Source: Bacilli bacterium (GTDB lineage: Bacteria > Bacillota_I > Bacilli_A > RF39 > UBA660). From it: a stretch of DNA of 64,000 nucleotides. This document shows positions 2,345 to 31,748 of the stretch, piece after piece (position 1 is the first letter of the stretch; the number at the start of each line of letters is the position of its first letter). The position numbers were made by a program, and so were the translations under genes. The notes beneath the pieces are model-generated. The model was not told where the DNA came from. It saw only the letters and a list, made by a program, of their open reading frames with translations, and did no database searches. Where the stretch lies: positions 93,826 through 157,825 of the forward strand of contig JBMNER010000003.1 in assembly GCA_050948885.1 (NCBI GenBank), in the 5' to 3' direction.

Positions 2345-2674
2345 TTAATTCTTTTCTTTGGGGCCATTCAACCTTAGCATATATTTTTCTTTTTTTTGAC
2401 TATAAGCTCGTATTTGATTATACGAAAAATCAAGCAATGATTTTGGACGACTTAATGCAGTTGGAAACTCTTCTATTAGATATCCTTTACTATATAAAAA
2501 ATAGCACATAAATAAAAAGAGTTCACAATCTTTAGCGGCTTTATCATCTGGCGGCTTTCTTAGTTCTTTGAGTTTTTCAATTACATCTTGATTATCAAAA
2601 AATTTTATATTACAAGTGCTATTAATTAAATTATAATAGTATTTATAGTGATACTCATCTTCGCTAATATTCAT
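2345..2674 (-). CDS. hypothetical protein
   Basis: ORF only. Confidence 0.3.
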   Translation of the reverse strand: MNISEDEYHYKYYYNLINSTCNIKFFDNQDVIEKLKELRKPPDDKAAKDCELFLFMCYFLYSKGYLIEEFPTALSRPKSLLDFSYNQIRAYSQKKEKYMLRLNGPKEKN

Positions 2675-2718
2675 AATAAAAAATTAACGTAAATCAATCA
2701 TAATATCCCTCTAAATAA

Positions 2719-3630
2719 TCACATTATATTATCAATCTCTTTTGCTATCGCTCTAATTACAGGTACTGATACACTATTACCAAACTGCTTATATGCTTGC
2801 ACGTCATTAACAACAATTTTAAAGCTTTCTGGAAACCCTTGTAATCTAGCTGCTTCACGTGGTGTTAATTTTCGTGGATTTTTATCTTTTTGATTTATTA
2901 ATATTTCTGATCCATCCTTATAATATCTTGCTGATATTGTGTTAGTATAAGGTGATTTATGATCAAATAAAGAGTACCCAAACCCATTGCCTTTTGACAT
3001 ATGCTCTTTTTTCCTTCGTTGGTGCCCAGCCCATAGTTTATCTGATATAGTATATTTTTCGTCTACATTTTTATCTAAAATTTGTCCAACACGAGTAACT
3101 ATATAGCTTGGTTTTGGAAAGTTAAATTTCCTTCTCTTATCTCTAATAGCAACCATATATACTCTCTCTCGGTTTTGTGGGATACCAAAGTCTTTTGAAT
3201 TATATATTTGAAAAAAGAAATTATACCCCATCTTTTCAAATTCAGTTTTTACCATCATATAAATTAAATTATTATTGCTTGTATAAAATCTTTTCACATT
3301 TTCTAAAAAAACAACTTTAGGTTTATGCTCTTTGACAATCTTTATTATATCAAAAATAAATGTTCCCCTCTCATCTTCAAGTCCTTTTTTTAATCCAGCT
3401 TGAGAAAAAGGCTGACAAGGAAATCCCGCTAATAACAAATCATGTTTAGGAATATCTCTTGGTTTTATTGTTTTTATATCACCGTATGGTGTGTCGTTAA
3501 AATTTGCTTTATATGTTTCAACAGCAAATTTATCTATTTCGGAACTAAAGACACATTCATAGCCTAATTCTTCAAAAGGAATTCTAATTCCACCTATTCC
3601 CGCAAATAAATCAATAAATTTTACTGCCAT
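2719..3630 (-). CDS. DNA (cytosine-5)-methyltransferase (type II modification subunit)
   Basis: motif I FAGIGG, motif IV PCQPFS, ENV, QNRERVY; short target-recognition domain. Confidence 0.85.
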   Translation of the reverse strand: MAVKFIDLFAGIGGIRIPFEELGYECVFSSEIDKFAVETYKANFNDTPYGDIKTIKPRDIPKHDLLLAGFPCQPFSQAGLKKGLEDERGTFIFDIIKIVKEHKPKVVFLENVKRFYTSNNNLIYMMVKTEFEKMGYNFFFQIYNSKDFGIPQNRERVYMVAIRDKRRKFNFPKPSYIVTRVGQILDKNVDEKYTISDKLWAGHQRRKKEHMSKGNGFGYSLFDHKSPYTNTISARYYKDGSEILINQKDKNPRKLTPREAARLQGFPESFKIVVNDVQAYKQFGNSVSVPVIRAIAKEIDNIM

Positions 3631-3641
3631 TAATTTTCACC

Positions 3642-4319
3642 TCACTTATCCCAATAATTTAATACTTCCGGTATGTTTTTATAAAAATAATATTCAAAAG
3701 ATATCACATTATGATCCTTACTAAATTTAGTTTCTTTAATATTCTTTAACACTACTAAAATAATATTGTGCATTGCCATCTGTTTTATTTTAGCACCAGC
3801 TATATCTTCGTCAACAGTTAGCAAATAAATATTGGGTAAATTAGATCTTTGTACTTCTTCTACTACTTCTTGCCAACGTTCTCTTAAAGTTGTTTTCATA
3901 CTACCAACAACTGTCTTATTTCTATAATCATTAAAAGCTTGGATGCTAGGCAATACGGAATCTACAACTTTCCCTAATCCTAGTTTTTCAAAAGCTAATT
4001 TACCAATTTGAGCTTGCGAATCATATGAATAACCAAGTAATTCATATAGGGTATAAATTATACTTTCAAAAGTACTACCCGCTCTGCTCCTTCTAGATTG
4101 AGTATTACTTAACGATAATTGATAAATATATGGGTAAATTTTACCAGCATATGTACTAAATTCTTCATTTATCCTATTTCTAAATTCAGTTATATTTAAT
4201 TCTTTAGAAAAATCCTTTTCGAGATTATTTACTATTTCACTTAATATTTCTTTTGGATAATCAAATTCTAAACCAATTTGCTTTAATATAATTTCATTAA
4301 ATCTTATTTCTTGCTCCAA
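3642..4319 (-). CDS. putative type II restriction endonuclease partnered with the C5-MTase
   Basis: same strand, 11-bp gap to the methyltransferase gene, island context; family not recognisable by eye. Confidence 0.45.
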   Translation of the reverse strand: MEQEIRFNEIILKQIGLEFDYPKEILSEIVNNLEKDFSKELNITEFRNRINEEFSTYAGKIYPYIYQLSLSNTQSRRSRAGSTFESIIYTLYELLGYSYDSQAQIGKLAFEKLGLGKVVDSVLPSIQAFNDYRNKTVVGSMKTTLRERWQEVVEEVQRSNLPNIYLLTVDEDIAGAKIKQMAMHNIILVVLKNIKETKFSKDHNVISFEYYFYKNIPEVLNYWDK

Positions 4320-4537
4320 AAAACATCATATACTTCTTGTCTCAATATCATAATTAATTGTGATATGTTTTGATTTTTCAAATATTCTTTTATTAATTCT
4401 GAATTCTTCATACATACAAGTTCAACGGTTTCTTTTGCATTTGTTATGTATTTATTGCGTCCATCACGTATATAATGTGTAAGCTTTTTTTCTTCTTCAA
4501 TAGATAATTTAATATTTTCTTCCAACTTATTATTCAT
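4304..4537 (-). CDS. small hypothetical protein
   Basis: ORF only. Confidence 0.3.
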   Translation of the reverse strand: MNNKLEENIKLSIEEEKKLTHYIRDGRNKYITNAKETVELVCMKNSELIKEYLKNQNISQLIMILRQEVYDVFWSKK

Positions 4538-4552
4538 AACTACCTCCTATAT

Positions 4553-4894
4553 TTAAATTTTTTTAATAAAATCTATTATTTTTATTAGGGTTTTCTTACT
4601 TGGTATTTCTCTATACTTCTTATAATAATATTCCTTAATATTTTCCATTAATTCTTTAGCTTCTTTATCAATATCCAAACCTTTTTCAAAATCAGGAGCT
4701 AATCCTAATAAATCTCTAACATCTATTTTGTAATAGTCAGCTATTTTTTCAAGAGTATAAAATTCAGGATATGACATCCCTGTTTCATAATTACCATATG
4801 CTGATCTTTTAATATTTAACTCTTCAGCGAGTTTATACTGACTAACACCTTTTAGTTCACGCATTTTTTTCAAATTTGAAGCTAATTTATCCAT
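4553..4894 (-). CDS. XRE-family helix-turn-helix transcriptional regulator (controller or repressor-like)
   Basis: LKKMRELKGVSQYKLAEELNIKRSAYGNYETG is a Cro/C1-type HTH. Confidence 0.7.
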   Translation of the reverse strand: MDKLASNLKKMRELKGVSQYKLAEELNIKRSAYGNYETGMSYPEFYTLEKIADYYKIDVRDLLGLAPDFEKGLDIDKEAKELMENIKEYYYKKYREIPSKKTLIKIIDFIKKI

Positions 4895-5036
4895 ACCCTA
4901 TTACCTCCATATACATTATAAAACATATTGCAAAAAAAGACAATTAATTTTGTCTTTTATATTGCAAATTAATTTGTCCGTGTTATTGTGATTATAGGCA
5001 AATAAGATTGTCTATAATTTAAAAGGAGGTATTACT

Positions 5037-5216
5037 ATGAACGAAAATCAAAAAGTTTTTAACTGCAACGATGTCATGAAAATATTAAGATGTAAAAAGA
5101 GTAAAGCCTACGAAATTATTAAAGTATTAGATTATGAATTAAAAGAAAAAGGTTATTTGACAGTTAACGGTAAAATACCCAGCAGTTATTTATTTTATAG
5201 ATTAAATATTCAATAA
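5037..5216 (+). CDS. excisionase-like small DNA-binding protein (Xis-like)
   Basis: 59 aa, good RBS (aaaggagg), lies just upstream of the integrase remnant; putative HTH (VMKILRCKKSKAYEIIK). Confidence 0.45.
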   Translation: MNENQKVFNCNDVMKILRCKKSKAYEIIKVLDYELKEKGYLTVNGKIPSSYLFYRLNIQ

Positions 5217-5306
5217 TATTTAATCTTCTTGATATAAACCAATAATTAGATATTAAAGATAACGAGATGTTTTTATTTAACCAAAACAAATCACAAAAGA
5301 AGGAGG

Positions 5307-5650
5307 ATGGTGTTAATGCCTATTAAAAAAATGCATAATGGTACATATAAAGTAGATGTATCTTTAGGATCTGATCAATTATCTAACAAAAGAAAAAGTG
5401 TTGACAATCCAACCAAAGGAAACTCTTAGAAGAAATTTTAAATATTATCAAAGAATGGCAGGTTCAAAGGATATTAGATTACATAACTTAAGACATTCAC
5501 ATGTAGCATTATTAATAAATCTAGGACGAGATCCCTAACTATTAAAAAGCGATTAGGTCATTCTGATATTACTATTACTTTAAACACCTATGGACACCTT
5601 TATGATGATGCACAAAAGAAGTTAGCGGATAAATTGGATGAAATATAAAA
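5307..5650 (+). pseudogene. tyrosine recombinase (integrase) remnant with internal deletion and stops
   Basis: the N-terminal piece MPIKKMHNGTYKVDVSLG...KRKS is joined directly to C-terminal catalytic fragments LRHSHVALLINLG and HSDITITLNTYGHLYDD, in different frames with stops. Confidence 0.55.
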
Positions 5651-5654
5651 AGTG

Positions 5655-7557
5655 TTATGCGCTTTCTTTTTTATACTCAAACATTTTTTTGATAATACAA
5701 ATTTCATAATCCAAATCATCAATTGAAACATTAGCTGCAAAATTAAAAGGTTGTATTTGATCATAATAATGACCGTTTTGATTTAACATCACTTTCATTT
5801 GCATTAATTTAGTCCTATCAACTTCAGGATAACAATTTATTTTAGGAGTTTTCCCTTTAGGATATAAATAATCAATCTTTGCTCCAAAAGTTTCCTTTTT
5901 AGTTAATTCACACAGAATATCTTTATTATCCTTAAACGCTTCATAGAATTTCTTCTCAATCCAAACCCGTATACCAATAATTAATAAAATTTTTATATAA
6001 ATCATTTCTTCAAAATTTTTTTCAATATAATCACTAGCATCAAAAGAATCTATCATTTCAACAAAATACTCATTTGTTAAATCAACATAATCTGAACCTA
6101 CTTTAAACCTAAAGGTAAAGGGACTATCATAATGAAAAACCTTGTGTCCTTTATAATTTTTGTCTTCCAATTCCCTTGATACTAAGAGCAACAAGTATTT
6201 ATCTTTGTCGTATTTTTTTATGATGTTTAAAATACCATAATCACTTGTACTTATTTTCTTTATGTATCGCACGCCCTTATAAACATCAAAATATTTTAAA
6301 TTGAATAACCACTTTAGTTGAGAATTTAATATATTAATTGTTTCAATATTGTGTGTAAAAACATGGACTTTATTTTCTTTTGTCAGGGATGCTATTTCAT
6401 ACATTATTTTATATTGGTTCGTCATATCAAAACTACTTATCGGATCATCAATAACTAAAATATCTTTATTATTAATTCTAAACCCGTATAACTTAACAAT
6501 AATTAAAAGTAAGTTAATTTCACCCGTACTATAACTATCTATTTTCCTTCCCTTTTTCGGAATAAACTCAATTTGATAGTTTTCATCATCAAAAATAATT
6601 TCTTTAAAATCAAATTTTTTGTTTATATAACCTTTAATCAAAGTCTCTTCAGCTTTTAAGACTTTATATTGTTCTTCCTTTACACTTAATAATTTTTTAA
6701 TTTTATTAGTTAGTTTAGAAATTTCTTTATATGCTTTTTCAAACAATTTACGGTTATCCTGATTACCATTACATAAAAAATAATCCAAAATTTCTTTATT
6801 ATCCATTGATTTAACAGTCTTAACTATATTATTTAAAATCTCCGCGTGCCTTTTATTAGTCTTATCAAAATTAAATCCAGCAAATAGATTATCTTTAATT
6901 TCTGAGAGTTTTTCCATTTTGGTAGTTATAATTGCCAAAATTTTTTTACCGGTAGTCCCACATACTGGGCATTCATCAGTTTCTTCATCAACAATTTTTA
7001 ACAAATTATCTAGCGTTTTTTAAATATACACTTTTTAGATTGTTTATTTCTTCTTCTACATTACTCACTCCTTTTATCCTTTTATAGTTTTTTACAGTAC
7101 AATTGATATAATCTGATGGAATATTTTGGTTTATTTCATTTAATCTTTCCTTACTCAATGTAAAACTATCTATTTGTTTTGATGATTGAATCTCTTCAAA
7201 TAAGATATCTATTTGTTTAGCAACTGTTGCATTAATGCCAGCTTGTTTAAACTGTGAATCGATTGATAAATCTTGTTGAATTATTTTAAGGTGATTTTGT
7301 AAATTTTCAATTTCTGCAACTTTAGCTGCTATTACTATACTACCCTTTATTTTTATAAAATCTTCCTTCATTCTATCAACATCAAAGTAATCTATTCTAT
7401 TTGAAAAATCACTATTGACAATGTAATTATAAATACTGGTTTTACCTATTCCATTGTAACCAAAATAAACAGTCGAATCCTCTTCAAGATTGATATTAAA
7501 ATCTGAATCAAATTTTAAGTATTTTAAATTATCATTTAAAACTTTACTATCAAACAT
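5655..7557 (-). pseudogene. SMC/Rad50-like ABC ATPase (about 630 aa if joined) split by a frameshift in a homopolymer (T6 at 7006..7011)
   Basis: N-terminal part has Walker A GYNGIGKTS. C-terminal part has a CPVCG zinc-hook-like motif, signature-like YSTGEINLL, Walker B ILVIDDPISSFD and H-loop VFTHN. Removing one A restores SVYLK-TLDNLLKIVDEE. Confidence 0.55.
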
Positions 7558-7743: not shown

Positions 7744-7820
7744 TGGTCGGGAAGACAGGATTTGAACCTGCAACCCCCTGGTCCCAAACCAGGTGCACTG
7801 CCAAGTTGTGCTACTTCCCG
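7744..7820 (-). tRNA. tRNA-Pro (anticodon TGG)
   Basis: cloverleaf read by hand; starts CGGGAAG, ends CCA. Confidence 0.85.
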
Positions 7821-7823
7821 TAA

Positions 7824-7900
7824 TGGCGCGCCCGATAGGAGTCGAACCCATAACCTTTTGATCCGTAGTCAAACGCTCTATCCAATTGAGCTACGGGCGC
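7824..7900 (-). tRNA. tRNA-Arg (anticodon ACG)
   Basis: GCGCCCGTAGCTCAATTGGATAGAGC...; anticodon loop cuACGga. Confidence 0.85.
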
Positions 7901-7946
7901 ATTATATACATTATTTGATATTATATTATATGCATTTATATAAGAA

Positions 7947-8022
7947 TGGTGGCTTCGGACGGAATCGAACCGCCGACACAAGGATTTTCAGTCCTTTGCT
8001 CTACCGACTGAGCTACGAAGCC
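7947..8022 (-). tRNA. tRNA-Phe (anticodon GAA)
   Basis: GGCTTCGTAGCTCAGTCGGTAGAGC...; anticodon loop cuGAAaa. Confidence 0.85.
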
Positions 8023-8025
8023 TCT

Positions 8026-8100
8026 TGGCGGTTCCGACGGGAATTGAACCCGCGATCTTCTGCGTGACAGGCAGACGTGTTAACCACTACACTACGGAAC
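8026..8100 (-). tRNA. tRNA-Asp (anticodon GTC)
   Basis: acceptor ggttccg/cggaacc; anticodon loop cuGTCac. Confidence 0.8.
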
Positions 8101-8175
8101 CCTCAACTTATTTAATTAATTGCCTTTATAGTATACTAGATATAGGTGGTTTTTGTCAATATGTTATACCTATAA

Positions 8176-11993: not shown

Positions 11994-12302
11994 ATGAATA
12001 TTAATGAATTAAACGAACTAATTGTTAAGCTGGATAAAGATTTGCCTAAAAAGATATTAGATGGTAAAGAAGTATTTGATTTTAAAGATTCAAATATAGT
12101 CCTTGGGGTAGCATGTATTGTAGTTTATAAAGATAAAATGCTCATTATGAAACGAAGCAATAAAGTAGCCGTATTTCAAAATAAATGGGCCGTAATTAGT
12201 GGTCACTTAGACTGCGTAAAACCAATTAAAGAAATCATATTAGAAGAAATAGCATTTAAGCTCCCTATTATTAGAAACTTTTTATCATATTCAATTAATT
12301 GA
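11994..12302 (+). pseudogene. NUDIX-like hydrolase N-terminal fragment, truncated
   Basis: GVACIVVYKDKMLIMKRS...WAVISGHLD NUDIX-fold start with an incomplete NUDIX box; overlaps the opposite-strand MTase fragment. Confidence 0.35.
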
Positions 12303-12817
12303 GCTATATATTCCCTAAATAAACTAAAGGGAGGATTAGTAACAACTATATCAGCTTCTTTTAATAATTTAATACATTCTTTACTTCTAAAATCGCCATC
12401 ATCTTTAAGTAAAGTTAATATGTTTTTTTTATTTTTTATTAAATGTTCTACATCAACTAAATCAACAGCCCCATCTTGGTTACAATCCACTATCTCATTT
12501 ATTTCTAATTTATAAGGTTTTTTATTGTTTGTTTTTTTTATTTCTAATTCCTTTACATCAAATAAAGATAACTGAACATGAGATATAGAAGAATCAGTAT
12601 AACATGTAGTAATTATTTTTTTTAATCCAAGAACATTAAAATTCATCGCAAAATATTTAAAGAAATTGCTCTCAAAAGGATCATCACAATTACAAATGAC
12701 TATTTTATCTTTAAAATGTTCTTTATAATATTTAAGTTCTTTTTCTATATCAGATAATTGTGTATAAAATTCATCGTTCTTGTCCTTTTTTGCCTTTTGT
12801 AAATTTTTATTTGCCAT
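12203..12817 (-). pseudogene. EcoRI-methylase-family N6-adenine DNA methyltransferase, C-terminally truncated orphan
   Basis: N-terminal KAKKDKNDEFYTQ...CNCDDPFESNFFKYF and motif IV VVTNPPF; only 204 aa, no cognate endonuclease. Confidence 0.45.
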
Positions 12818-13015: not shown

Positions 13016-13092
<77 letters not shown>

Positions 13093-13103
13093 ATATTAAA
13101 CTT

Positions 13104-13196
13104 TGGCGGAGGAAGAGGGATTCGAACCCCCGCGTCGCTTGCGCGACCTCTCGGTTTTCAAGACCGACCCCTTCAACCAGACTTGGGTATTCCTCC
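13104..13196 (-). tRNA. tRNA-Ser (anticodon TGA)
   Basis: long variable arm; anticodon loop cuTGAaa. Confidence 0.8.
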
Positions 13197-13204
13197 ATAT
13201 AATA

Positions 13205-13291
13205 TGGTGCCTGAGGCCGGAATTGAACCGGCACGGGATTGCTCCCTCAGGATTTTAAGTCCTGTGCGTCTACCTGTTCCGCCACTCAGGC
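13205..13291 (-). tRNA. tRNA-Leu (anticodon TAA)
   Basis: long variable arm; anticodon loop cuTAAaa. Confidence 0.8.
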
Positions 13292-13298
13292 ATATAAA

Positions 13299-13374
13299 TG
13301 GTGTCCCGTATAGGACTCGAACCTATGGCCCTTTGATTAAAAGTCAAATGCTCTACCACCTGAGCTAACGGGAC
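13299..13374 (-). tRNA. tRNA-Lys (anticodon TTT)
   Basis: GTCCCGTTAGCTCAGGTGGTAGAGC; anticodon loop cuTTTaa. Confidence 0.85.
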
Positions 13375-13381
13375 AAATAAC

Positions 13382-13456
13382 TGGCTGCCTCGGCTAGATT
13401 CGAACTAGCGCATGTCAGAGTCAAAGTCTGATGCCTTACCGCTTGGCTACGAGGCA
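13382..13456 (-). tRNA. tRNA-Gln (anticodon TTG)
   Basis: U1-A72 start; anticodon loop cuTTGac. Confidence 0.8.
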
Positions 13457-13462
13457 TTAACT

Positions 13463-13545
13463 GGTGGAGAGAGGTGGATTCGAACCACCGAACCCGAAGG
13501 AACAGATTTACAGTCTGTCGCGTTTAGCCACTTCGCTATCTCTCC
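13463..13545 (-). tRNA. tRNA-Tyr (anticodon GTA)
   Basis: long variable arm; anticodon loop cuGTAaa. Confidence 0.8.
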
Positions 13546-13551
13546 ACAAGA

Positions 13552-13627
<76 letters not shown>

Positions 13628-13631
13628 AAAA

Positions 13632-13708
13632 TGGTGGACGATGTAGGACTCGAACCTACGACCCCTTGCTTGTAAGGCAAGTGCTCTAACCAGCTGAGCT
13701 AATCGTCC
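13632..13708 (-). tRNA. tRNA-Val (anticodon TAC)
   Basis: GGACGATTAGCTCAGCTGGTTAGAGC; anticodon loop cuTACaa. Confidence 0.85.
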
Positions 13709-15122: not shown

Positions 15123-15653
15123 ATGAAAATAAAAAAATATGAATGGAGCGATATAATGGAAAAATTACACCAATTAACCATTAATACCTTAAAGGAAAGA
15201 GGAGTTACGATCGAGAGTATCGCCGAAATTGTTTACGATTTACAAAAAGATTATACGGATAATTTAACAATTGAATATTGTCAAGAAACCATTTTATCAG
15301 TCTTAAAAAAACGGGAAGTTATATATGCGATATTAGTCGGTATCGCCCTTGATAAAGGCGCTGAACAAGGATTATTTACTAAAGAAATTAACGAAGTTAT
15401 CTTAGACGATAATAGTTTATTTGGTATTGATGAAATATTAGCCCTTAGTATTATTAATGTTTATGGATCAATCGCCCTAACTAATTTTGGTTATGTTGAT
15501 AAAATTAAACCATTTATCATTGGCAAATTAAATCGGTTAGGAGAACAAAAAAAGCAGTGTACTACCTTTTTAGATGACTTAGTAGCGGCTATTGCGGCTG
15601 CGAGCGCTAGTAAAATGGCTCATGATCGCTTAAAAAAGGAAGATAATGTTTAA
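15123..15653 (+). CDS. phosphatidylglycerophosphatase A family protein (YutG/PgpA-like)
   Basis: GIDEILALSIINVYGS motif region; synteny. Confidence 0.65.
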   Translation: MKIKKYEWSDIMEKLHQLTINTLKERGVTIESIAEIVYDLQKDYTDNLTIEYCQETILSVLKKREVIYAILVGIALDKGAEQGLFTKEINEVILDDNSLFGIDEILALSIINVYGSIALTNFGYVDKIKPFIIGKLNRLGEQKKQCTTFLDDLVAAIAAASASKMAHDRLKKEDNV

Positions 15654-17452
15654 TTATCTTCTTTTTTATATACATAAGTTGGATTTTGGGTCTTTTCTTG
15701 GTCCGGTGTTGTTTGTTGCTTTTGATCCGTCTGAACCATGTGGCTTATTCCCTGCGCTAGTGCTGGCATAAGCCCTTTTATACTTTTAGTATCATTTCCT
15801 ATGTCCTCTAGTCTATCCTTTATATCCCCTACTTCAGCTAATATTTGATTATCTTGATTATGTATTACAAGTTCAATACCTTCTCTTTTACCCCTTAGCC
15901 GAGCAAGTTCTAGTTTATCGGTTTGGGGGTCCTTTTCCATTTCTTCAATTTGCCTTGTTAACTCTATTATTGTATAAGCAGGACTATTAAACGCTTCCGT
16001 TAGTTCTCCTTCACGCCTTAAATTAACTTCCCCCTTCTTAGTTAGAGCTGGTGATTCTTTCTTTTCGCCACCTTCTGGTGTAGTCTGGGTTATGTAAATA
16101 GGATTATTATCGGCTTCATCTAGATTCTTCTTACCTGTATTTTCAGGTTGAGTTACATGAACATAATCATGGTGTGTTTTATCTAAATTTTCTTTAGATG
16201 TTAAATTAACTTCCTCAGTAGTTAATGGCGGTGTTTCTTTATTTTTGCCACCTTCTGGTACAGTTTGGGTTGTATAAGTATAATTATGGGAAGCTTCATC
16301 TAGATTCTTCTCCTCCCTATATTTTTCAGGCTGAGTTACATGAACATAATCATGGTGAGCTTTATCTAAATTTTCTTTAGATGTTAAATTAACTTCCTCA
16401 GTAGTTAATGGCGGTGTTTCTTTATTTTCGCCACCTTCTGGTACAGTCTGGGTTGTATAAGTATAATTATGGGAAGCTTCATCTAAATTCTTCTCCTCCC
16501 TATATTTTTCAGGCTGAGTTACATGAACATAATCATGGTGAGCTTTATCTAAATTTTCTTTAGATGTTAAATTAACTTCCTCAGTAGTTAATGGCGGTGT
16601 TTCTTTTGGTTCAATTCCTTCTTGATTGCTAAGTTCAGTAGCCTCAGTACTAATTGATTTTTTTGATCTATCAATTAGTTCACCATTTTGATCAAATAAA
16701 TATTCAACTTGTCTTATATTACCTTCTTCTAATAAAGCGGCATGTTTATCTATATATTTTTGGTATTTTTTCTCCAGTCTTAGTTTTTTATTATCACCAT
16801 GCCATAATGAAAAATTTACCATTAAAGATTTAATCCCAGTTTGACGATGGCTATCACTAAGTATCTTTTCTTGTTCCTTTTTATGGTGTTCAATCTCTTT
16901 AGCCCCTTCTTCAATTTCTTTTCTTACTTTCCACTCAGCATAATAATCATGACCGGCTTGCCTTGTATACCACGCGGACAAATTAGTAAAAGGGTTCTTA
17001 GAAATTTTTATTGGTCTCGGCTTACTAATGACATTAAAAAAAGCGGTGATTTCCGGCGTCCCATAGAAATCTAGCCCATATTTCTCAGCCATTTTTTTAA
17101 TGTTACCACTTAATTTATGTTCTAATGAACGGACTTCCCGAGCTTTTTCTTTAGCCGTTTCTTTATTATCGGTTCTAGCTAATCCTTCTTGAGCCTTTCT
17201 AAAATCTTTATATAATGGCTCAAGACTAGCCTCTAGCCTTTGTTGGTTTATTTCTCGCCAGGTTCTTGCAAATTTTGCATTTCTTATCTTATTACAAAGT
17301 GAACTAGTTAATTTAGCCACTTTTTCTTTACCTGAAGTAAAAAGATCACTGGCTATTACCTGAGCTCTTCCTACTGGTAATCCCTCTCGAACCAATAATA
17401 CATCATTAAATTCGTTTCCTTCGTTTCCTGTATTAAAAAAATCAGGCTTCAT
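15650..17452 (-). CDS. 600-aa protein with an N-terminal helical domain and 3.3 tandem 61-aa His/Tyr-rich repeats; composition-atypical
   Basis: repeat unit ETPPLTTEEVNLTSKENLDKAHHDYVHVTQPEKYREEKNLDEASHNYTYTTQTVPEGG; no signal peptide; local GC is clearly higher than the flanks. Confidence 0.5.
   Translation of the reverse strand: MKPDFFNTGNEGNEFNDVLLVREGLPVGRAQVIASDLFTSGKEKVAKLTSSLCNKIRNAKFARTWREINQQRLEASLEPLYKDFRKAQEGLARTDNKETAKEKAREVRSLEHKLSGNIKKMAEKYGLDFYGTPEITAFFNVISKPRPIKISKNPFTNLSAWYTRQAGHDYYAEWKVRKEIEEGAKEIEHHKKEQEKILSDSHRQTGIKSLMVNFSLWHGDNKKLRLEKKYQKYIDKHAALLEEGNIRQVEYLFDQNGELIDRSKKSISTEATELSNQEGIEPKETPPLTTEEVNLTSKENLDKAHHDYVHVTQPEKYREEKNLDEASHNYTYTTQTVPEGGENKETPPLTTEEVNLTSKENLDKAHHDYVHVTQPEKYREEKNLDEASHNYTYTTQTVPEGGKNKETPPLTTEEVNLTSKENLDKTHHDYVHVTQPENTGKKNLDEADNNPIYITQTTPEGGEKKESPALTKKGEVNLRREGELTEAFNSPAYTIIELTRQIEEMEKDPQTDKLELARLRGKREGIELVIHNQDNQILAEVGDIKDRLEDIGNDTKSIKGLMPALAQGISHMVQTDQKQQTTPDQEKTQNPTYVYKKEDN
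16022..16620. repeat. 183-bp tandem repeat, about 3.3 copies, in frame within the 600-aa gene
   Basis: the string ttaaattaac recurs at 16201, 16384 and 16567 (period 183); copies 2 and 3 are near-identical, copy 1 diverged. Confidence 0.85.
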
Positions 17453-17466
17453 TTCCTATCCCACCT

Positions 17467-17733
17467 TTACTCATCTTTTGCGAGTTCTTTAAGTATTTCT
17501 TTAATTTTTTCCCACTCATCATCAGTCGCAATACCCGTCAAAACCTTTTGACCGTTTTGTTCCTCAATGGCTGATGCGTAAATAGTTACATTACCATCCT
17601 CATCTTGTTCATTCTTCGTATAAATAACATAGTCTTTATTAGTAACATCCATACGAAAAGCAATCAAAGCTTCTACCTGTTCCTTATTACCACTTTCATC
17701 CATGATAGTAATCATTTTTCTGTTATCCATCAA
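17467..17733 (-). CDS. DUF1292/UPF0473 (YrzB-like) small acidic protein
   Basis: ITIMDESGNKEQVEALIAF...ATDDEWEKIKEIL pattern. Confidence 0.6.
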   Translation of the reverse strand: MMDNRKMITIMDESGNKEQVEALIAFRMDVTNKDYVIYTKNEQDEDGNVTIYASAIEEQNGQKVLTGIATDDEWEKIKEILKELAKDE

Positions 17734-17822
17734 CTAACCTCCCATTATTCTTACTATTTTTATTATAACACATATTCCTTGATAATAAACAGTTATTTCT
17801 TATCTTGTCAAAACAATGTCAA

Positions 17823-20733: not shown

Positions 20734-21198
20734 ATGTTTAACCAGCAAGTAAAAGATATTATGACTAAAAAAGTAATTACGGCAAATCGCCATACTACCT
20801 TCAATGAAGTCGCTAAGTTAATGGCCAAACATGATACTGGTTTTATTCCTATTGTTGACCATGACGAAATAATTGGCGTTATTACTGACCGCGATATAGT
20901 TATAAGAGGCCTAAGTAATAGAGAAAACTATAATTGTCCCGTTGATAAATACATGACTCATGAAGTTATCACCATTAAACCAGATGCTTCCATTGATCAA
21001 GCTAGTGAATTAATGGCCCAAAAACAAATAAAAAGATTATTAGTTACTGATCAAGGTAAGTTAACTGGTGTTATATCACTAGCGGATATAACTAACTATA
21101 ATAATAAAAAAGCCCTTCAGGCTTTAACTGGCATCAATAAAAAAAACACTAGGTCTTATCAAGATGACAACCCTAGTGTTGATGACTTTAAACTATAA
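20734..21198 (+). CDS. CBS-pair domain protein
   Basis: VKDIMTKKVITA...IPIVD...GVITDRDIV and a second CBS; RBS aaggag. Confidence 0.75.
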   Translation: MFNQQVKDIMTKKVITANRHTTFNEVAKLMAKHDTGFIPIVDHDEIIGVITDRDIVIRGLSNRENYNCPVDKYMTHEVITIKPDASIDQASELMAQKQIKRLLVTDQGKLTGVISLADITNYNNKKALQALTGINKKNTRSYQDDNPSVDDFKL

Positions 21199-21987
21199 CT
21201 TAAAAGCATTAAAATCAACATAACTACTAACCAGATACCAAACAAAAGTAATAATTAAGGCAACTATGACAAAGATTAATAAGCGTCTAACTAGACCATT
21301 ACTTTTAACTGGCGTTTTATCAGCCTTTTCTTTTTCAAAATCATCTTTGGTGAAATTACAAAAACTAGAATAAAAAGATTTATCAATCTCCTTTATCTCG
21401 TCATTTTCTTTTTCCGCTTTTTCAATCATATCTCCTAATGATTGTGTCATCATATCTGATAACAAGTTGTTAGTATCATCTTTCTTTCTTATGGCATTAA
21501 TTTCTCTTTTATTCATCGTAATAGTATGAATTAAATCCTTTAATTTTTCTTCGGCTGATTCTATCTCTTGAGTATATTCATCAATATCTTTACTTAAATC
21601 TAAATTATTCAATATATTATATTGCGTATTTCTTAACTTACGATACTTCTCCCGAATATCAGTCTCCGTTCTTTCTTCTTTAGCCCTTTCCAAAATACTA
21701 TTAATATCATGATTTATCTCTTCTTCAAAAATTGAATTAACAGGTTCTTCTTCTCTTTCGTAGGGTGCCTCTACCAAAGTTTGATAACTTTTCAAACGTT
21801 GGTATTCCGCCCTGCTTTTATATTGTTTTGTCTCACCATGTAAATTTATCTCTTTAATATCATCAACACTAACCACCTCAGAAATAGGCTCTAGATTATA
21901 AACGGTATTATATAAATCAGTGTTTTTTTTAGCCCGCGTGTTGGTTTTACTTTCATCTTGATAATATTTATCCATCCGTCTTTTCAT
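21193..21987 (-). CDS. hypothetical coiled-coil protein with C-terminal membrane anchor
   Basis: charged helical body; C-terminal LLIFVIVALIITFVWYLV. Confidence 0.4.
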   Translation of the reverse strand: MKRRMDKYYQDESKTNTRAKKNTDLYNTVYNLEPISEVVSVDDIKEINLHGETKQYKSRAEYQRLKSYQTLVEAPYEREEEPVNSIFEEEINHDINSILERAKEERTETDIREKYRKLRNTQYNILNNLDLSKDIDEYTQEIESAEEKLKDLIHTITMNKREINAIRKKDDTNNLLSDMMTQSLGDMIEKAEKENDEIKEIDKSFYSSFCNFTKDDFEKEKADKTPVKSNGLVRRLLIFVIVALIITFVWYLVSSYVDFNAFKL

Positions 21988-22136
21988 TCTATCACCACCT
22001 AAATTCTACCATGTTTCATGAACATTTTCAAACAAATAAAATATTACTCTGCCCACCTTTAATATTACCTCATCTTAGTTGCTTTTTTTATTTAATCACG
22101 CTATAATTTTATTATATTGAGGAGGAAAAAAGAAAC

Positions 22137-22334
22137 ATGATTAAAGTAAAAATTAACACTGAGCTTTGTATTGGTTGTGGCGCATGTCATGCTATCGCCC
22201 CAGAAGTATTTGCGATTAATGATGAGGGATTTGCGTATGTTAAAAATAATGATTTTGATGAGAAAAATAAAGATGATGTTTTAGATGCGGTGGAAAGTTG
22301 TCCCACTAACGCCATTGAAAGGAAAGATAAATAA
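22137..22334 (+). CDS. ferredoxin (single [4Fe-4S]-type)
   Basis: CIGCGACHAIAPEVF...VESCPTNAI; hairpin terminator at 22340-22370. Confidence 0.85.
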   Translation: MIKVKINTELCIGCGACHAIAPEVFAINDEGFAYVKNNDFDEKNKDDVLDAVESCPTNAIERKDK

Positions 22335-22467
22335 AAAGGCCATCATAAATGAGCCTTTTTTCTTTCTCTTTAGAAGTTTAAACGAATGCTTTTAATAATT
22401 TTTACTGTTTTGGTCAGGCATAAAAGAGAAAGTTAACAGACAAAGTAAATTTTACTTTTAATTTGTT

Positions 22468-22683
22468 CTATCCTTTTATTTTTATATATCTATTTAATTC
22501 TTCAATTAAATAATCACAGATTAAATCTAACATTAGGGAATAATCTTTATTTTCATTATATACTTTAAAAGCATCATAGTATCTTTTTTTATCTTTATTT
22601 TTTATGTTTATAGCCACATAACCATTTTTCATAAGTTCTAAATTAAGAATTAATCGTCCTACTCGACCGTTACCATCAGGTAA
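22468..22683 (-). pseudogene. Fic-domain C-terminal fragment
   Basis: LKPLPDGNGRVGRLILNLELMKNGY is the tail of the HPFxDGNGR motif region; no start codon and an upstream stop. Confidence 0.45.
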
Positions 22684-22699
22684 TGGCTTTAACTATGTT

Positions 22700-23909: not shown

Positions 23910-24427
23910 TTATCCATATATTTTGACATTACCATTTCCATCAATAAAAGGATGGATACTTTCAAACTTTAAATGAAATAAAGCAATTTTTCTATTATCG
24001 GTAATTTATTTTCACTATTATACCAAACTAATAATTTTTCTATATTAGATTTTATCATATAGGGTTCTGAAAGAACAGCGGTAGTACCAAGAATACGTAC
24101 CGGTAAATCTCTATACTTCCCTTTATCCGCTTGTCTTTCCATCAAAACAAGGCGGTGAATATCTAAAATTTGGTTTTCCATTAAATTACCTTTTGTTTTA
24201 ACTAAATCCTCAATATAATAATAAGCATCTTTATGTCCTATAGCAGTTAGATAATCATTAAGTGGCTTTTCCCCGATTGTAATATTCTCTTTTAAAACTA
24301 ATGCCGTTTCATCTAATGTTAATGTGCTCCCTTCAATGGCATTACTATCATAAGTATACTCAATAACAAACTCTTCGCGTAAACGATTAATTTCTCCGCT
24401 TGTAAACGCTCTTAAAGAACTTAACAT
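23910..24427 (-). pseudogene. Fic-domain protein, frameshifted and truncated at the active-site motif
   Basis: the N-terminal Fic body (ORF 23969..24427) shifts frame to ...FHLKFESIHPFIDGNGNVKIYG*; ends within the HPFxDGNGR motif. Confidence 0.5.
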
Positions 24428-27211: not shown

Positions 27212-28536
27212 TTACGGCCATAAACGTTTTTGATTTCTAAAGACATAAGAAGTCTCCCTAATACTATCCAGCCCTAATAACACCATTAATATTCGCGCTA
27301 GACCGCTCCCAAAACCGCCATGGGGTGGACATCCATATTTAAAAAAATCTAAATAAAAATTAATTGTTTCTAAATTCAAACCCTTTTCTAGCGCCTGTTT
27401 AACTAAAACATCATAACGATGTTCTCTTTGGGAACCCGTGGTAATCTCAACCCCATTCCATAACAGATCAAAACTCTTAGTTAATAATGCGTCCTGTTCA
27501 CTTTTCATATGATAAAAAGGGCGCTTAGTGTAAGGGAAATCAGTAATAAAAACAAATTCATGCTGGTGGTGTTTTTTAATATAGGCTGATAATATCTTCT
27601 GTCCTTCCGCATCTAAGTCCCCCTCAAGATTGAAAGGATTAGAATGCCCCTCTGCGCTCACCAATGTAATGGCATCAAGCCATCTTTATTCGCGGAAATG
27701 GTCGTTTGGGAATGACTAGTTCCCTATTAAATAAGGCTTTTACTTGATTCCCATACTTTTCTTTTACTTTCGTAATGCCCTCAATGAATAATTCTTCCTG
27801 TAACGACCATAATATCTTCTTCGGACTTAATCCAGGATACTTCCGCATCAATACCAGTAAAATCAGTCGCATGAACCGTGGTATGTGAACGATCAGCTCG
27901 GAAAACGGGGCCAATTTCAAAAACTTTCCCAAAACCAGCGGCCATCGCCATTTGTTTATAAAATTGTGGTGATTGGGTTAAATAAGCCTTGGTCCCAAAA
28001 TAATCAACCTCAAAAACCTCCGCCCCTGATTCAGTTGGAGCCCCAGTAATTTTCGGTGAATGAATCTCAATAAAATCATTACTAACAAAGTATTTTCTTA
28101 TTGTATGTTCAAATAAGGTTTGCACTTTAAAAATTAACGCTTTTTCTTGTTGACGAAGATCTAAATAACGCCAGTTTAATCTTACTTCGGCAGAGGTTTC
28201 GGTTTTACCACTAAAATCAATGGGAATTAAATTTTGAGCCTTACATTCTACCTCAATATCATTTACTACTACCTCTAATTTATTTATTGGCCCTTTACTT
28301 TTATTTACCATTCCCTTGACAGATATGACCGATTCTAAAGTAATGTTTTTAACCTTAGTTACTAAATCTTCATTATCCTTTAAGACTAATAATTGGATAT
28401 CGCCACTAAAATCACGCAAGTCAATAAACATAACCGCTTTTAAATTTCTGATTCTCTTAAGCCAGCCTTTTATAATTACTTCTTGATTAAGATAACGATC
28501 CAATTCCTCTATTAATACTCTTTTCATATCTACCAC
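27212..28536 (-). pseudogene. aspS: archaeal/eukaryal-type aspartyl-tRNA synthetase (AspRS2-like) broken into three frames
   Basis: N-terminal and core piece 27781..28536, middle piece ...ELFIEGITKVKEKYGNQVKALFNRELVIPKRPFPRIKMA in frame 2, C-terminal piece DAITLVSAEGH...GGFGSGLARI in frame 3; stops at 27781 and 27675. Confidence 0.55.
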
Positions 28537-29961
28537 CTATTTTTTCTTTATTTCTTCTTTTAATATTTCCGCTGTTAAAGCCGGGTTTGCCTTTCCTTTT
28601 GTTTTTTTCATGACTTGTCCCATAAAATAATCTAAAACATTATCGCGACCTTTTTGATACTCACTTATTAGGTGCTTATTCTCCGTTAAAACTTCTGTCA
28701 CCACCTCTTTAATATAACTATCGTCCTGAATCTGTTTAATATCTAAGGTTTTAATAATATCTATTGGTGATTGTTTTTTCTCTAGGGCTTGATATAACAC
28801 TTCTTTACCTTGTTTGTTAGATATTACTTTACTGTCAACTTGGTTAATTAATTCAATTAACATCAATGGTGTAATATAAAGATCATCCATTGTTAATTCA
28901 TATTTATTAAGGTGACTTAAAATAATACCATTAACCCAGTTTACTATGGTTTTATAGTTATTACTATACTTTAATGTATTTTCAAAAAAATCAGCCACTT
29001 TTTTATCTTTTACCAAAATCGTTGCGTCATACCTTGATAACTCATATTCATTCATATACTTATTAATTCGTTCATACTGCAACATGGGAATAGTTTTTTT
29101 AATAGTGGTCAACCACGACGAAGCAATAGGAAATGCCGGCAAATTAGGGTCAATGAAATACTTATAATCAGTCGCTTCCACTTTCGTTCTCATACTATAG
29201 GTTTTACGCTTATCATCATCAAAACGCCTTGTTTCCATCAGTACTTTTTTACCGGATTTTAACAACTCGGTTTGGCGCTTAACTTCATACTCAATCGCAT
29301 CCTTAACGTTATTAAAGGAATTAATATTTTTTAACTCCACTTTAGTCCCCAGTGTCTCTGCTTCTGATTTAGTAATGGAAATATTAACATCACACCGCAT
29401 TTGTCCCTTATCACTTTTCGCCTCAGAAACATCACAATATAAAAAGACTGATCTTAAAGCTTCTAAAAAAAGGACGGCTTCACGACTACTATTAAGACAA
29501 GGTTCGGTGACGATTTCAATTAAAGGAATGCCCGCGCGATTATAATCTAATAATGAATAATTATCAAAGTGATCTAAGCTTGCTGTATCTTCTTCTAGAT
29601 GTAATTGTTTTATATTAACAGTCTTATCATGACCATCAACATTAATAATTAAAATCCCATTAACACCAAGTGGTTTAGTGTTTTGCGTTATTTGATACCC
29701 TTTCGGTAAATCAGGATAAAAATAATTTTTACGGTCAAAAATAAGTTCATCAGCTATATCACAATTTAAAGCCAGTGCGGTTTTTAAAGCTAATTCGACC
29801 GCCCCTTTATTAGTGACGGGCATAACACCAGGAAAAGCAACATCTACCGGTGAAACATTTATATTCGGTGTTACATCATAAGTATTAGGTGCGGATGAAA
29901 AGACTTTAGACTTTGTTTTTAATTCACAATGAACTTCTAAACCGATTACTACCTTATACAT
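28537..29961 (-). CDS. gatB: Asp-tRNA(Asn)/Glu-tRNA(Gln) amidotransferase subunit B
   Basis: 474 aa with typical GatB N-terminal and C-terminal domains. Confidence 0.95.
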   Translation of the reverse strand: MYKVVIGLEVHCELKTKSKVFSSAPNTYDVTPNINVSPVDVAFPGVMPVTNKGAVELALKTALALNCDIADELIFDRKNYFYPDLPKGYQITQNTKPLGVNGILIINVDGHDKTVNIKQLHLEEDTASLDHFDNYSLLDYNRAGIPLIEIVTEPCLNSSREAVLFLEALRSVFLYCDVSEAKSDKGQMRCDVNISITKSEAETLGTKVELKNINSFNNVKDAIEYEVKRQTELLKSGKKVLMETRRFDDDKRKTYSMRTKVEATDYKYFIDPNLPAFPIASSWLTTIKKTIPMLQYERINKYMNEYELSRYDATILVKDKKVADFFENTLKYSNNYKTIVNWVNGIILSHLNKYELTMDDLYITPLMLIELINQVDSKVISNKQGKEVLYQALEKKQSPIDIIKTLDIKQIQDDSYIKEVVTEVLTENKHLISEYQKGRDNVLDYFMGQVMKKTKGKANPALTAEILKEEIKKK

Positions 29962-31426: not shown

Positions 31427-31427
31427 T

Positions 31428-31748
31428 TTAGCTAACCACCTTTGGTACCTTTACTTCGTTATTTACTACTTCATTTGTATTACTTAATAACTCACTTGGT
31501 AAAAGACAATCAACTATTTTATCTTCCCTTAAAGTAATGTCCTTTAGAGTAAATGGGAAAGTTAAGGGTGACTTTTCAGCAAGACCATCAATCTTGTTCA
31601 TTAACTGAATATGTTCTAATATTACTTTAAATTTTGCTTGTAGAACATCATATTCTTCATCTTCCATCGCAAACATTAAACTATTCGCACATTTTTTTAA
31701 TAAGTCCTTATCTACTCCCATTAAATAACCTCCTAAGTCACATGCCAA
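31428..31748 (-). CDS. gatC: amidotransferase subunit C
   Basis: 106 aa; REDK...LPSE...VPKVV C-terminal pattern; lies directly upstream of gatA. Confidence 0.7.
   Translation of the reverse strand: MACDLGGYLMGVDKDLLKKCANSLMFAMEDEEYDVLQAKFKVILEHIQLMNKIDGLAEKSPLTFPFTLKDITLREDKIVDCLLPSELLSNTNEVVNNEVKVPKVVS

Follow-up and report, generated by a model that had tools for sequence, protein, structure and literature searches.

DUF1292 proteins, annotated as YrzB or UPF0473, are widespread in non-sporulating Firmicutes. In Bacillus, Listeria, and Enterococcus the gene sits with ruvX/yrzL, and we know of no hypervariable coiled-coil gene described downstream of it in these genera. Our literature search recovered no functional data for DUF1292, yrzB, or UPF0473. 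Other points of reference for the gene studied here are repeat-rich proteins, among them the Bacillus subtilis coat proteins CotG, CotB, and CotC, which are rich in His, Tyr, and Lys. We analyzed a 64,000-nucleotide stretch of DNA (the window) in which a repeat-bearing gene, called gene X herein, directly follows a DUF1292 gene. On balance, we favor with modest confidence the reading that X is a resident gene whose product serves, under weak constraint, as a scaffold in the cytoplasm together with DUF1292, and that it is the local member of a so far undescribed family, evolving very fast, that occupies this position, termed the slot.

Gene X, its repeat array, and its alleles

An earlier note on this DNA had described a 600-aa ORF with in-frame tandem repeats embedded in core yut/yun synteny, and both parts of this description stand (Table 1). 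The neighbors of X are NifU/YutI, YutH, PgpA/YutG, DUF1292, YutD, DUF4015, and YunB. A tRNA cluster lies at 13016-13708, with three core genes between it and X. Rfam searches returned nothing within or adjoining X. TRF reported a single array in frame at 16050-16606, with a period of 183, 3.1 copies, 92% matches, and 0% indels. Units are numbered here in gene order, units 1 and 2 being copies 3 and 2 of the earlier note. The three near-identical 183-bp repeats that it reported were found in part: units 1 and 2 differ at only 3 of 183 positions (1.6%), the diagnostic bases lying at unit positions 120, 158, and 177, which agrees with the recent expansion also proposed there, whereas unit 3 is shorter and its second half has diverged: it matches unit 2 in 96 of 100 columns at the start of the alignment and in only 64 of the other 83 (~77%). 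The resulting linker consists of three 61-aa units rich in His, Tyr, Thr, and Glu; the enrichment in His (6.0%) and Tyr (5.5%) was correctly noted before, and the units are acidic (pI 4.9).

Table 1. Positions of gene X, its parts, and the adjoining expression signals in the window
Feature	Position	Strand	Description
Gene X	15650-17452	minus	600-aa ORF plus stop codon, ATG start
X N-terminal region, aa 1-282	16607-17452	minus	pI 9.2, net charge +7; helical by prediction, low confidence
Block 1, aa 41-57	17282-17332	minus	GKEKVAKLTSSLCNKIR; aligned to K-x-A-K-L-(S/T)-P-N, a motif present in slot proteins from related species (suggestive only)
Block 2, aa 124-135	17048-17083	minus	KYGLDFYGTPEI; aligned to the (Y/L/F)-G-(I/L/V) block that related slot proteins carry
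Block 3, aa 143-165	16958-17026	minus	SKPRPIKISKNPFTNLSAWYTRQ; second K-x-I-K-(I/L) motif, aligned in L178, L020, L004, L176b, and L174b
Repeat unit 1, aa 283-343	16424-16606	minus	183 bp; missing from two-unit alleles
Repeat unit 2, aa 344-404	16241-16423	minus	183 bp; matches unit 1 at 180/183 positions
Repeat unit 3, aa 405-464	16061-16240	minus	180 bp; sole unit in the 510-aa allele
Degenerate fourth half-unit, aa 465-495	15968-16060	minus	KESPALTKKGEVNLRREGELTEAF...; read directly from the sequence
C-terminal helical hairpin, aa 491-575	15728-15982	minus	pLDDT ~80 in the single-sequence AF2 model
DUF1292/YrzB-like gene	17467-17733	minus	87-88 aa; conserved upstream partner of X
Shine-Dalgarno of X	17460-17468	minus	AAAGGTGGG; strong, overlaps the DUF1292 stop codon
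Sigma-A-type promoter elements 5' of DUF1292	17762-17811	minus	TTGACA-18-TATTAT (11/12), extended -10 TGTTATAAT, doubled TTGACA box; consensus matches only

The X protein is hydrophilic (GRAVY -1.09, pI 5.7). It carries no signal peptide, as had been stated, and no TM segment, LPXTG motif (LP.TG pattern), or wall-binding Pfam domain; no hydrophobic stretch was found, the maximum Kyte-Doolittle 19-mer score being 0.72. X is probably cytoplasmic, because signal peptide, LPXTG, choline-binding, and S-layer domains are all missing. The N-terminal ~280 aa had been called basic and helical, which holds for their charge and, at low confidence, for their predicted structure. A single-sequence AF2 model was poor (mean pLDDT 41.8) and unusable for fold search, with most of the protein predicted as helical or disordered and only two stretches near pLDDT 80, the C-terminal hairpin and a helix at approximately aa 71-120. 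The modeled hairpin is a probable oligomerization module.

The unrecognised family to which the earlier note assigned the N-terminal domain was the right description for all public libraries searched: for X, Pfam, NCBIfam, and PADLOC gave no match, nor did a PDB sequence search, and the only PHROG match was an 11-residue stretch (E = 0.002). A word-indexed search of 5.8 billion proteins recovered 4 near-identical proteins only, and when 1.84 billion representative proteins were searched exhaustively with phmmer, nothing beyond the cluster of X itself appeared. A profile search with an 8-sequence N-terminal alignment gave only 3 proteins, so there was no deeper alignment for structure prediction.

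Gene X was observed at the same place with the same neighbors in 10 of 10 conspecific contigs, and its full-length frame is intact in all 6 contigs that span it. Copy number appears to vary, as had been predicted, with alleles of 600 aa (three units), 539/541 aa (two units), and 510 aa (one unit), although the other 4 contigs end within the array and short-read k141 assemblies, in which unit collapse is possible, are among the two-unit contigs. The 539/541-aa alleles keep exactly units 2 and 3. The one-unit allele is the firmest, as it came from two independent samples and has a distinct linker sequence, in which unit 3 is preceded by a different Pro/Val/Glu stretch. All length changes and indels are in frame, in multiples of 3. 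The dN/dS of X was 0.37 overall and ~0.5 in either terminal domain, compared with ~0-0.24, mostly 0.07-0.14, for its neighbors. The array is also a ready-made marker by which strains of this uncultured lineage could be told apart.

DUF1292 and the slot gene in related genomes

The protein encoded upstream of X is a clear DUF1292 (Pfam 3e-11; JGI annotation YrzB/UPF0473). Its AF2 model was good (pLDDT 81.5); a Foldseek comparison with the PDB gave nothing significant (best E = 0.09, TM ≤0.39), and the PDB sequence search gave chance-level matches only. The Shine-Dalgarno of X contains AGGTGGG and abuts or overlaps the DUF1292 stop, and the intergenic gap is 14 nt, so X is likely translationally coupled to DUF1292. 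By consensus match, the doubled TTGACA sigma-A-like promoter 5' of DUF1292 is conserved in relatives, including both duplicated modules described below, and elements of this type precede each pair of DUF1292 and slot gene. Pattern searches found no sigE, sigK, or sigG consensus near X, in an organism that provides no positive control for such searches.

Every relative with a contig running past DUF1292 has a slot gene on the same strand. Counting all loci whose contig extends that far (~37 species-level loci), ~34 have a separate gene of 200-606 aa that starts within ~60 nt of the DUF1292 end. At three more loci, each from a different species (L009, L012, and L016), DUF1292 and the slot protein are fused in one ORF, which opens with a DUF1292 domain that BLASTP matches to the window protein (E = 3e-16) and continues into a ~330 aa linker and a K/E-rich helical tail. 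Tandem DUF1292-slot-DUF1292-slot duplications were present in two lineages (L174 and L176/L177). Slot proteins have a common layout: the N-terminal region contains short basic blocks that are conserved, an acidic, repeat-prone linker of low complexity follows, and the C-terminal part is helical or coiled-coil-like (coiled-coil character in relatives being judged from sequence only), with no export signal. X has both this layout and this position, lying directly 3' of DUF1292 on the same strand. Many slot genes have tandem repeats (period 18-69 bp) that are central and in frame; the linkers of the other proteins are of Pro/Glu/Val type and are not enriched in His or Tyr. None of 10 slot proteins tested had a Pfam match.

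We related slot protein similarity to the identity of the flanking DUF4015 protein. At 97% flank identity slot identity was 89%, at 87% it was 52%, and at 76% slot similarity ranged from 57% to undetectable. Similarity was detectable in 4 of 36 slot pairs at 60-65% flank identity and in 0 of 275 below 55%. The nearest relatives of X have flank identities of ≤64%, and a metagenome scan for bridging relatives with >66% DUF4015 identity found none. Because slot similarity fades below ~65% flank identity, the orphan status of X is expected.

Sequence comparison does not establish X as a homologue of the other slot proteins and falls short of standard criteria. BLASTP against L004 and L020 was non-significant (E of at least 0.2), phmmer, run with X in three parts on 2,792 ORFs of related loci, gave nothing specific, and hhalign of a 7-sequence profile against X was likewise non-significant (E = 0.17). 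When a motif HMM built without X was run on 139 window ORFs, X ranked first, yet its E was ~1. The part of X that best resembles another slot protein is its N-terminal region, which against L178 gave a Smith-Waterman (SW) score of 77 (shuffle mean 40 ± 6; z = 5.9, p ~3e-4) in a colinear alignment of X 41-229 with L178 40-217, and among 1,508 real ORFs taken from related loci the L178 group took ranks 1-3 in similarity to X. Repeat-less X against L020 reached z = 3.9 across the whole length, and an 8-sequence alignment that includes X has three colinear blocks. A shared composition, helical and rich in K/E, may account for part of the SW signal. When motifs were sought in distant slot proteins by unsupervised EM, the yield was mainly Pro/Glu/Val low complexity, plus K-x-P-x-S-F; for this distant-clade motif X scored no higher than shuffles (P = 0.35).

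Origin and possible roles of gene X

The earlier note had also read X as composition-atypical, with GC higher than its surroundings, and as probably acquired; neither reading was supported. At 0.345, the GC content of X exceeds the window mean (0.312) by 3.3 points, which puts it at the 87th percentile of equal-length windows and at z = +1.0 among 59 ORFs. Only codon positions 1 and 2 carry this excess, chiefly the first, at which X has the highest GC1 among the 59 ORFs, and the excess thus reflects amino-acid content; GC3 is 0.210, under the mean of 0.240 (z = -0.7), and synonymous-codon deviation (scaled chi-square) ranks 50 of 59. The sliding-window GC and codon-usage check proposed in that note found ordinary codon usage. 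In the presence/absence comparison, the gene was in all ten conspecific contigs, among which unit counts appear to differ, and the slot was occupied in relatives. The idea of a horizontally acquired gene inserted in a conserved yut/yun block is largely refuted, and we consider it very improbable, even though the 1.84 billion representative proteins hold no X homologue outside the species and yutE/yutF occupy roughly the X position in B. subtilis instead. Against it stand the typical silent sites, the constant presence of X within the species, a slot that is filled in all relatives with DUF1292, including fusion and co-duplication, and the weak colinear similarity of X to slot proteins of neighboring species. 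Scans of the adjacent genes matched no integrase or transposase (Pfam, NCBIfam, and PHROG), and from NifU to hyp264, a range that leaves the short ORFs at 21988-22699 outside, no mobility function was matched by Pfam, PHROG, or PADLOC. A GC bump and orphan status alone do not indicate horizontal transfer, and the orphan status of X would follow from very rapid divergence in place.

Constraint on X is relaxed relative to its neighbors, and the protein is of low complexity and mostly disordered by prediction, as might be expected of a decaying or non-functional ORF with repeats that are neutral junk. We give this the least credence of all, given the intact frames and multiple-of-3 length changes, the strong Shine-Dalgarno, a dN/dS below 1, and the retention of a slot gene across ~37 species-level loci, some fused or duplicated. 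Exposure on the spore could instead explain the variability: X would then be a coat, crust, or exosporium protein, made in the mother cell and hence lacking a signal peptide, with its His/Tyr repeats cross-linked or phosphorylated and phage or host exposure driving hypervariability. The clade encodes alpha/beta-type SASPs and so probably sporulates, X lies among sporulation-associated genes (YutH, coat-kinase-like, and YunB), its repeats recall those of CotG, CotB, and CotC in their His and Tyr content (6% and 5.5%), and unit-number variation with extreme divergence is typical of surface components. We nevertheless regard a spore-surface role as unlikely. The recognizable promoter elements are of sigma-A type only and conserved in relatives, sporulation sigma-factor consensus was not found (here without a positive control), the obligate partner DUF1292 is widespread outside spore formers, the other slot proteins lack the His/Tyr enrichment, no Pfam or NCBIfam coat family resembles X, and its dN/dS is <1. 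More improbable still, in our view, is that DUF1292 and its variable partner form a conflict module (effector/immunity, toxin/antitoxin-like, or anti-phage) in which an arms race explains the hypervariability. Divergence, pair duplication, and a variable C-terminal half do resemble polymorphic conflict loci, and Pfam labels the adjoining YutD family "putative antitoxin"; however, PADLOC matched none of X, DUF1292, YutD, and DUF4015, X is mostly helical or disordered with no enzymatic or toxin domain, dN/dS is 0.37-0.5 rather than >1, and the module keeps a fixed chromosomal position amid housekeeping genes.

Under the resident-scaffold reading that we favor, X would be vertically inherited within a family whose genes, in a clade of Bacilli that are uncultured and have small genomes, always lie directly downstream of the DUF1292/YrzB-like gene and on its strand. 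The linker of the family's proteins grows and shrinks through tandem duplications that keep the frame. X and DUF1292 would be co-transcribed and translationally coupled and would act together in the cytoplasm, where the C-terminal hairpin may build an elongated oligomeric scaffold, the disordered repeats may serve as a weakly constrained spacer of variable length, and the N-terminal blocks are the likely contact site for DUF1292. A physical interaction between X and DUF1292 is suggested by adjacency, fusion, and co-duplication, which are its only basis. We propose more tentatively, as a possibility short of even odds, that DUF1292 and the slot gene constitute an unrecognised two-gene module in which the partner, dedicated to DUF1292 and inherited with it, diversifies faster than almost everything around it; spore-surface exposure or phage conflict could be the cause of this diversification. 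If such a module exists, the fusions would be the first functional handle on DUF1292.

Comparison with known systems

The window DUF1292, like DUF1292/UPF0473 elsewhere (YrzB of B. subtilis), is small and stand-alone. Unlike at Bacillus-type loci, DUF1292 in this clade is paired, fused, or co-duplicated with a slot gene, and the modest gain of this analysis is a genomic link, through adjacency, fusion, and co-duplication, between DUF1292/YrzB and a repeat-bearing coiled-coil partner. With CotG and CotB of B. subtilis, X shares in-frame tandem repeats, His/Tyr/Lys-rich units, the lack of a signal peptide, and a location near sporulation genes, including the CotS-family kinase-like yutH. It differs from them in having no sequence similarity, in its acidic rather than strongly basic units, in the sporulation-type promoter, which was not found, and in a partner gene that is not sporulation-specific. 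VNTR proteins of Gram-positive cell surfaces, for example the streptococcal M/PspA and staphylococcal SasG/Spa types, also combine, like X, a coiled coil with Pro/Glu-rich or tandem-repeat spacers, and, as X appears to, vary in repeat number among strains through recombination between near-identical units; unlike them, X has no signal peptide, LPXTG, choline-binding, or S-layer domain. MamJ-type adaptors have no sequence relationship to X, for which no filament or organelle partner was found, but they resemble X as interpreted here in being cytoplasmic, with an acidic repeat linker, variable repeats, and a specific partner.

Composition, repeats and expression signals

The 600-aa repeat protein carries no export signals: its GRAVY of -1.09 marks it as hydrophilic, hydrophobic stretches are absent (the highest Kyte-Doolittle 19-mer reaches 0.72), and its sequence contains no LPXTG motif. 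Residues 1 to 282 are basic, with a pI of 9.2; the repeats, with a pI of 4.9, are acidic and show enrichment for Thr, Glu, His (6.0%), and Tyr (5.5%). The single-sequence AlphaFold model was poor; at its mean pLDDT of 41.8, helices were predicted for residues 30 to 266 and disorder for the repeats, and residues 491 to 575 were modeled as a helical hairpin (pLDDT ~80).

The composition of the gene is typical of its host. The earlier note had described a visibly higher GC content and a probably acquired gene, but sliding-window and codon-usage analyses showed a small difference (0.345 versus 0.312 for the window; 87th percentile when compared with windows of the gene's length; z = +1.0 across 59 ORFs), which gives no pointer to foreign origin. 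The excess sits at first codon positions, where GC1 (0.494) was the highest of the 59 ORFs, and thus reflects Glu, Asp, Gly, Ala, Pro, and His content. GC3 was below the mean (0.210 versus 0.240), and the deviation of synonymous codon usage from all other ORFs (scaled chi-square) ranked 50th of 59, or 15th of the 24 ORFs of at least 300 aa.

Tandem Repeats Finder reported a single array (period 183, 3.1 copies, 92% matches, 0 indels). It consists of two near-identical units and one older unit. The description of three near-identical repeats therefore holds for units 1 and 2 and is overstated for unit 3, because the latter is 180 bp long and, while identical to unit 2 at 96 of the first 100 alignment columns, matches it at only 64 of the remaining 83.

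The 3' ends of the repeat gene and the convergent pgpA/yutG gene (+) overlap by 4 bp, which leaves no space for a terminator between the two; the 3' end of the repeat gene itself contains a terminator-like hairpin, on the + strand. Upstream of DUF1292, the YrzB-like neighbor, lies a near-consensus sigma-A-type promoter. The doubled -35-like box there recurs in five of six near-clade loci examined, among them L004 and L020 as well as L174 and L176, where the second copies have it too (L178 lacks it), and could represent overlapping promoters or an operator. No sigE, sigK, or sigG consensus was found near the two genes, which is weak evidence because sporulation promoters have no positive control in this organism.

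Coordinates of features in the window and in related loci
Feature	Position	Strand	Details
Repeat-protein ORF	15650-17452	-	600 codons, uninterrupted, ATG start
Its Shine-Dalgarno	AAAGGTGGG	-	overlaps upstream gene's stop codon; gap 14 nt
Repeat array	16050-16606	-
Unit 1	16424-16606	-	3/183 positions differ from unit 2
Unit 2	16241-16423	-	3/183 positions differ from unit 1
Unit 3	16061-16240	-	180 bp
Degenerate half-unit	15968-16060	-	directly after unit 3
3' overlap with pgpA/yutG	15650-15653
Terminator-like hairpin	15686-15706	+
DUF1292 gene	17467-17733	-
Sigma-A-type promoter	upstream of DUF1292		TTGACA-18-TATTAT, extended -10 TGTTATAAT
Doubled -35-like box	17790-17811	-	TTGACA or TTTACA, 4-5 nt, then TTGACA
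Gene without family assignment	21193-21987	-	264 aa
Fic-domain gene	23969-24427	-	152 aa
Fic-domain genes, conspecific	L001 290-985; L002 250-984		231-244 aa
gatC/gatA/gatB, tRNA-Asn, T-box leader	28537-31748, 31798-31873, 31898-32137	-	T-box, Rfam 136 bits
Class II Asp/Asn-tRNA synthetase	27212-28536	-	two ORFs: 27781-28536, 27212-27664
Defence-like island	2345-7557	-
tRNAs at island boundary	7744-8101
C5 cytosine methylase	2719-3630	-	in island
EcoRII-C-like endonuclease	3642-4319	-	in island
AAA_13/PDC-S06/PtuA-like ATPase	7006-7557, 5655-7004	-	in island; split, P-loop part first
EcoRI-type adenine methyltransferase	12203-12817	-	204 aa
Overlapping ORF	11994-12302	+
DUF1292 in-frame fusions	L009 7171-8478; L012 10053-11309; L016 9975-11174
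Alpha/beta-type SASP genes	L015 12740-12961; L018 12714-12974; L021 12908-13141

Alleles within the species and other features of the window

A word-indexed search of 5.8 billion proteins matched only four near-identical proteins. When the upstream DUF1292 protein (100% identical) was used to trace conspecific contigs, ten turned up in different samples, all with the same genes around the repeat gene. The three-unit, 600-aa allele occurred in the window and a 226-kb JGI contig (99.98% identical); at least three units were also present on a partial contig of an NCBI MAG. Four contigs carried a 539- or 541-aa allele with exactly units 2 and 3, and two independent samples a 510-aa allele with unit 3 only, preceded by a different Pro/Val/Glu-rich stretch. 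Copy-number variation is thus likely, as the proposal of a recent, variable repeat had anticipated; four of the ten contigs end within the array, so the two-unit form could reflect short-read collapse.

Allele length changes were in frame without exception. For the window compared with the 510-aa strain, dN/dS of the gene was 0.37 overall, with ~0.5 for its N-terminal and C-terminal domains, against ~0 to 0.24 (mostly 0.07 to 0.14) for neighboring genes, showing relaxed yet real purifying selection. In the same region, the syntenic 264-aa gene adjoining the CBS and yunB genes had a between-strain dS of 0.32 (0.01 to 0.07 for adjacent genes), which suggests a recombination boundary or divergent segment. 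The window's Fic-domain gene is shorter than its conspecific counterparts and may be a strain-specific truncation or use another start codon.

Elsewhere, the T-box leader, tRNA-Asn, gatC/gatA/gatB, and synthetase form, in this order, an otherwise coherent tRNA-dependent Asn pathway operon; the split synthetase could be a frameshift, pseudogene, or assembly error. The window also holds a small defence-like island bounded by tRNAs. The adenine methyltransferase ORF, overlapped by an ORF on the opposite strand, covers positions 1 to 177 of a 345-position profile and appears truncated.

The position downstream of DUF1292

Related loci were fetched through the DUF4015 protein from GTDB species representatives and metagenomes, and further contigs through the DUF1292 protein. 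Their source organisms are uncultured Bacilli, in many cases labeled "Mollicutes" or "Tenericutes bacterium" on deposition; in the closest, DUF4015 identity is only 60 to 64% over long matches (66% for one short partial fragment). Wherever DUF1292 follows yutD and the contig continues, the next same-strand gene starts within ~60 nt. This position, here called the slot, held a separate gene (200 to 606 aa) in ~34 loci and a fusion in three more; its constant occupancy also speaks against acquisition.

None of ten slot proteins tested had a Pfam family, and BLAST split 31 from genome and metagenome scans into at least 18 unlinked groups. Slot proteins nonetheless share a layout. The N-terminal part has short basic motifs, the center is acidic, Pro/Glu/Val-rich or otherwise low-complexity, and the C-terminal region is heptad-like and K/E/L-rich. 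The centers often contain in-frame tandem repeats (periods of 18, 39, 42, 45, 66, and 69 bp); four cases have assembly gaps. In the three fusions, DUF1292 continues for ~330 aa as a Pro/Glu/Val-rich linker and a K/E-rich helical tail; the window DUF1292 matched the L012 fusion over the full domain (BLASTP, E = 3e-16), and Pfam did not report DUF1292 there at E ≤ 0.01. Two lineages (L174 and L176/L177) carry tandem DUF1292-slot pairs separated by a terminator and a fresh promoter. Together with adjacency, fusion in three species and pair duplication in two lineages tie the slot gene to DUF1292.

The repeat protein fits no recognized family in the libraries searched, in line with the earlier note's view of its N-terminal domain: Pfam, NCBIfam, PHROGs, PADLOC, and PDB sequences gave no match, and 1.84 billion cluster representatives, searched exhaustively with phmmer, yielded only its own cluster. 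We compared slot similarity with DUF4015 flank identity for every locus pair. Slot identity fell from 89% at 97% flank identity to 52% at 87% and to 40 to 57%, or already undetectable, at 76 to 78%; similarity was detectable in 5 of 21 pairs at 65 to 70%, 4 of 36 at 60 to 65%, 1 of 150 at 55 to 60%, and 0 of 275 below 55%. Because the nearest sequenced relatives reach at most 64% flank identity, the absence of a homologue fits vertical descent with very fast divergence.

Homology of the protein to other slot proteins is probable, with a weak signal in direct alignments. In Smith-Waterman alignment with the L178 slot protein (L178 is a related species from a shared JGI sample), residues 1 to 282 scored 77, versus 40 ± 6 for shuffles (z = 5.9; Gumbel p ~3e-4), with residues 41 to 229 colinear with 40 to 217. 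Three L178-group slot proteins took ranks 1 to 3 among 1,508 real ORFs of at least 100 aa from related loci. Without its repeats, the protein aligned with the L020 slot protein over the whole length (z = 3.9), and slot proteins gave 7 of the 12 best length-corrected scores. L-INS-i alignment of eight N-termini revealed three colinear blocks, K-x-A-K-L-(S/T)-P-N, (Y/L/F)-G-(I/L/V), and K-x-I-K-(I/L)-x-P. Standard tests stayed negative: BLASTP against other slot proteins gave E ≥ 0.2, phmmer against ORFs of related loci nothing specific, and hhalign against a slot profile E = 0.17 in block 1 only; a motif HMM gave E ~1, though the protein topped the 139 window ORFs.

Interpretation

The evidence best supports a resident gene whose product belongs to a fast-evolving family and works with DUF1292. 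The gene would be cotranscribed and translationally coupled with DUF1292, and its product may be an elongated cytoplasmic scaffold that oligomerizes through the C-terminal hairpin, contacts DUF1292 through the N-terminal blocks, and uses the disordered repeats as a spacer of freely variable length. The DUF1292 model (pLDDT 81.5) has five beta strands and a C-terminal helix; Foldseek found no significant fold in PDB (best E = 0.09), and the literature searched gave no function.

The chief alternative is that the protein belongs to the spore coat or crust, as the gene sits among sporulation genes and its repeats are rich in His and Tyr; small acid-soluble spore protein (SASP) genes within a few kb of the module in related loci also indicate that this "Mollicutes/Tenericutes"-labeled clade is probably spore-forming. 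Against this stand the sigma-A-like promoter, the non-sporulation distribution of DUF1292, and other slot proteins without His/Tyr enrichment. Horizontal acquisition, a conflict module of DUF1292 and the repeat protein, and a decaying ORF are disfavored, with specific tests against each. The earlier note is borne out in part: a recent, variable repeat is supported, with the assembly caveat above, and acquisition is not. The protein is of an ordinary kind, lineage-specific, low-constraint, and repeat-bearing, and its one useful twist is the robust genomic link to DUF1292.
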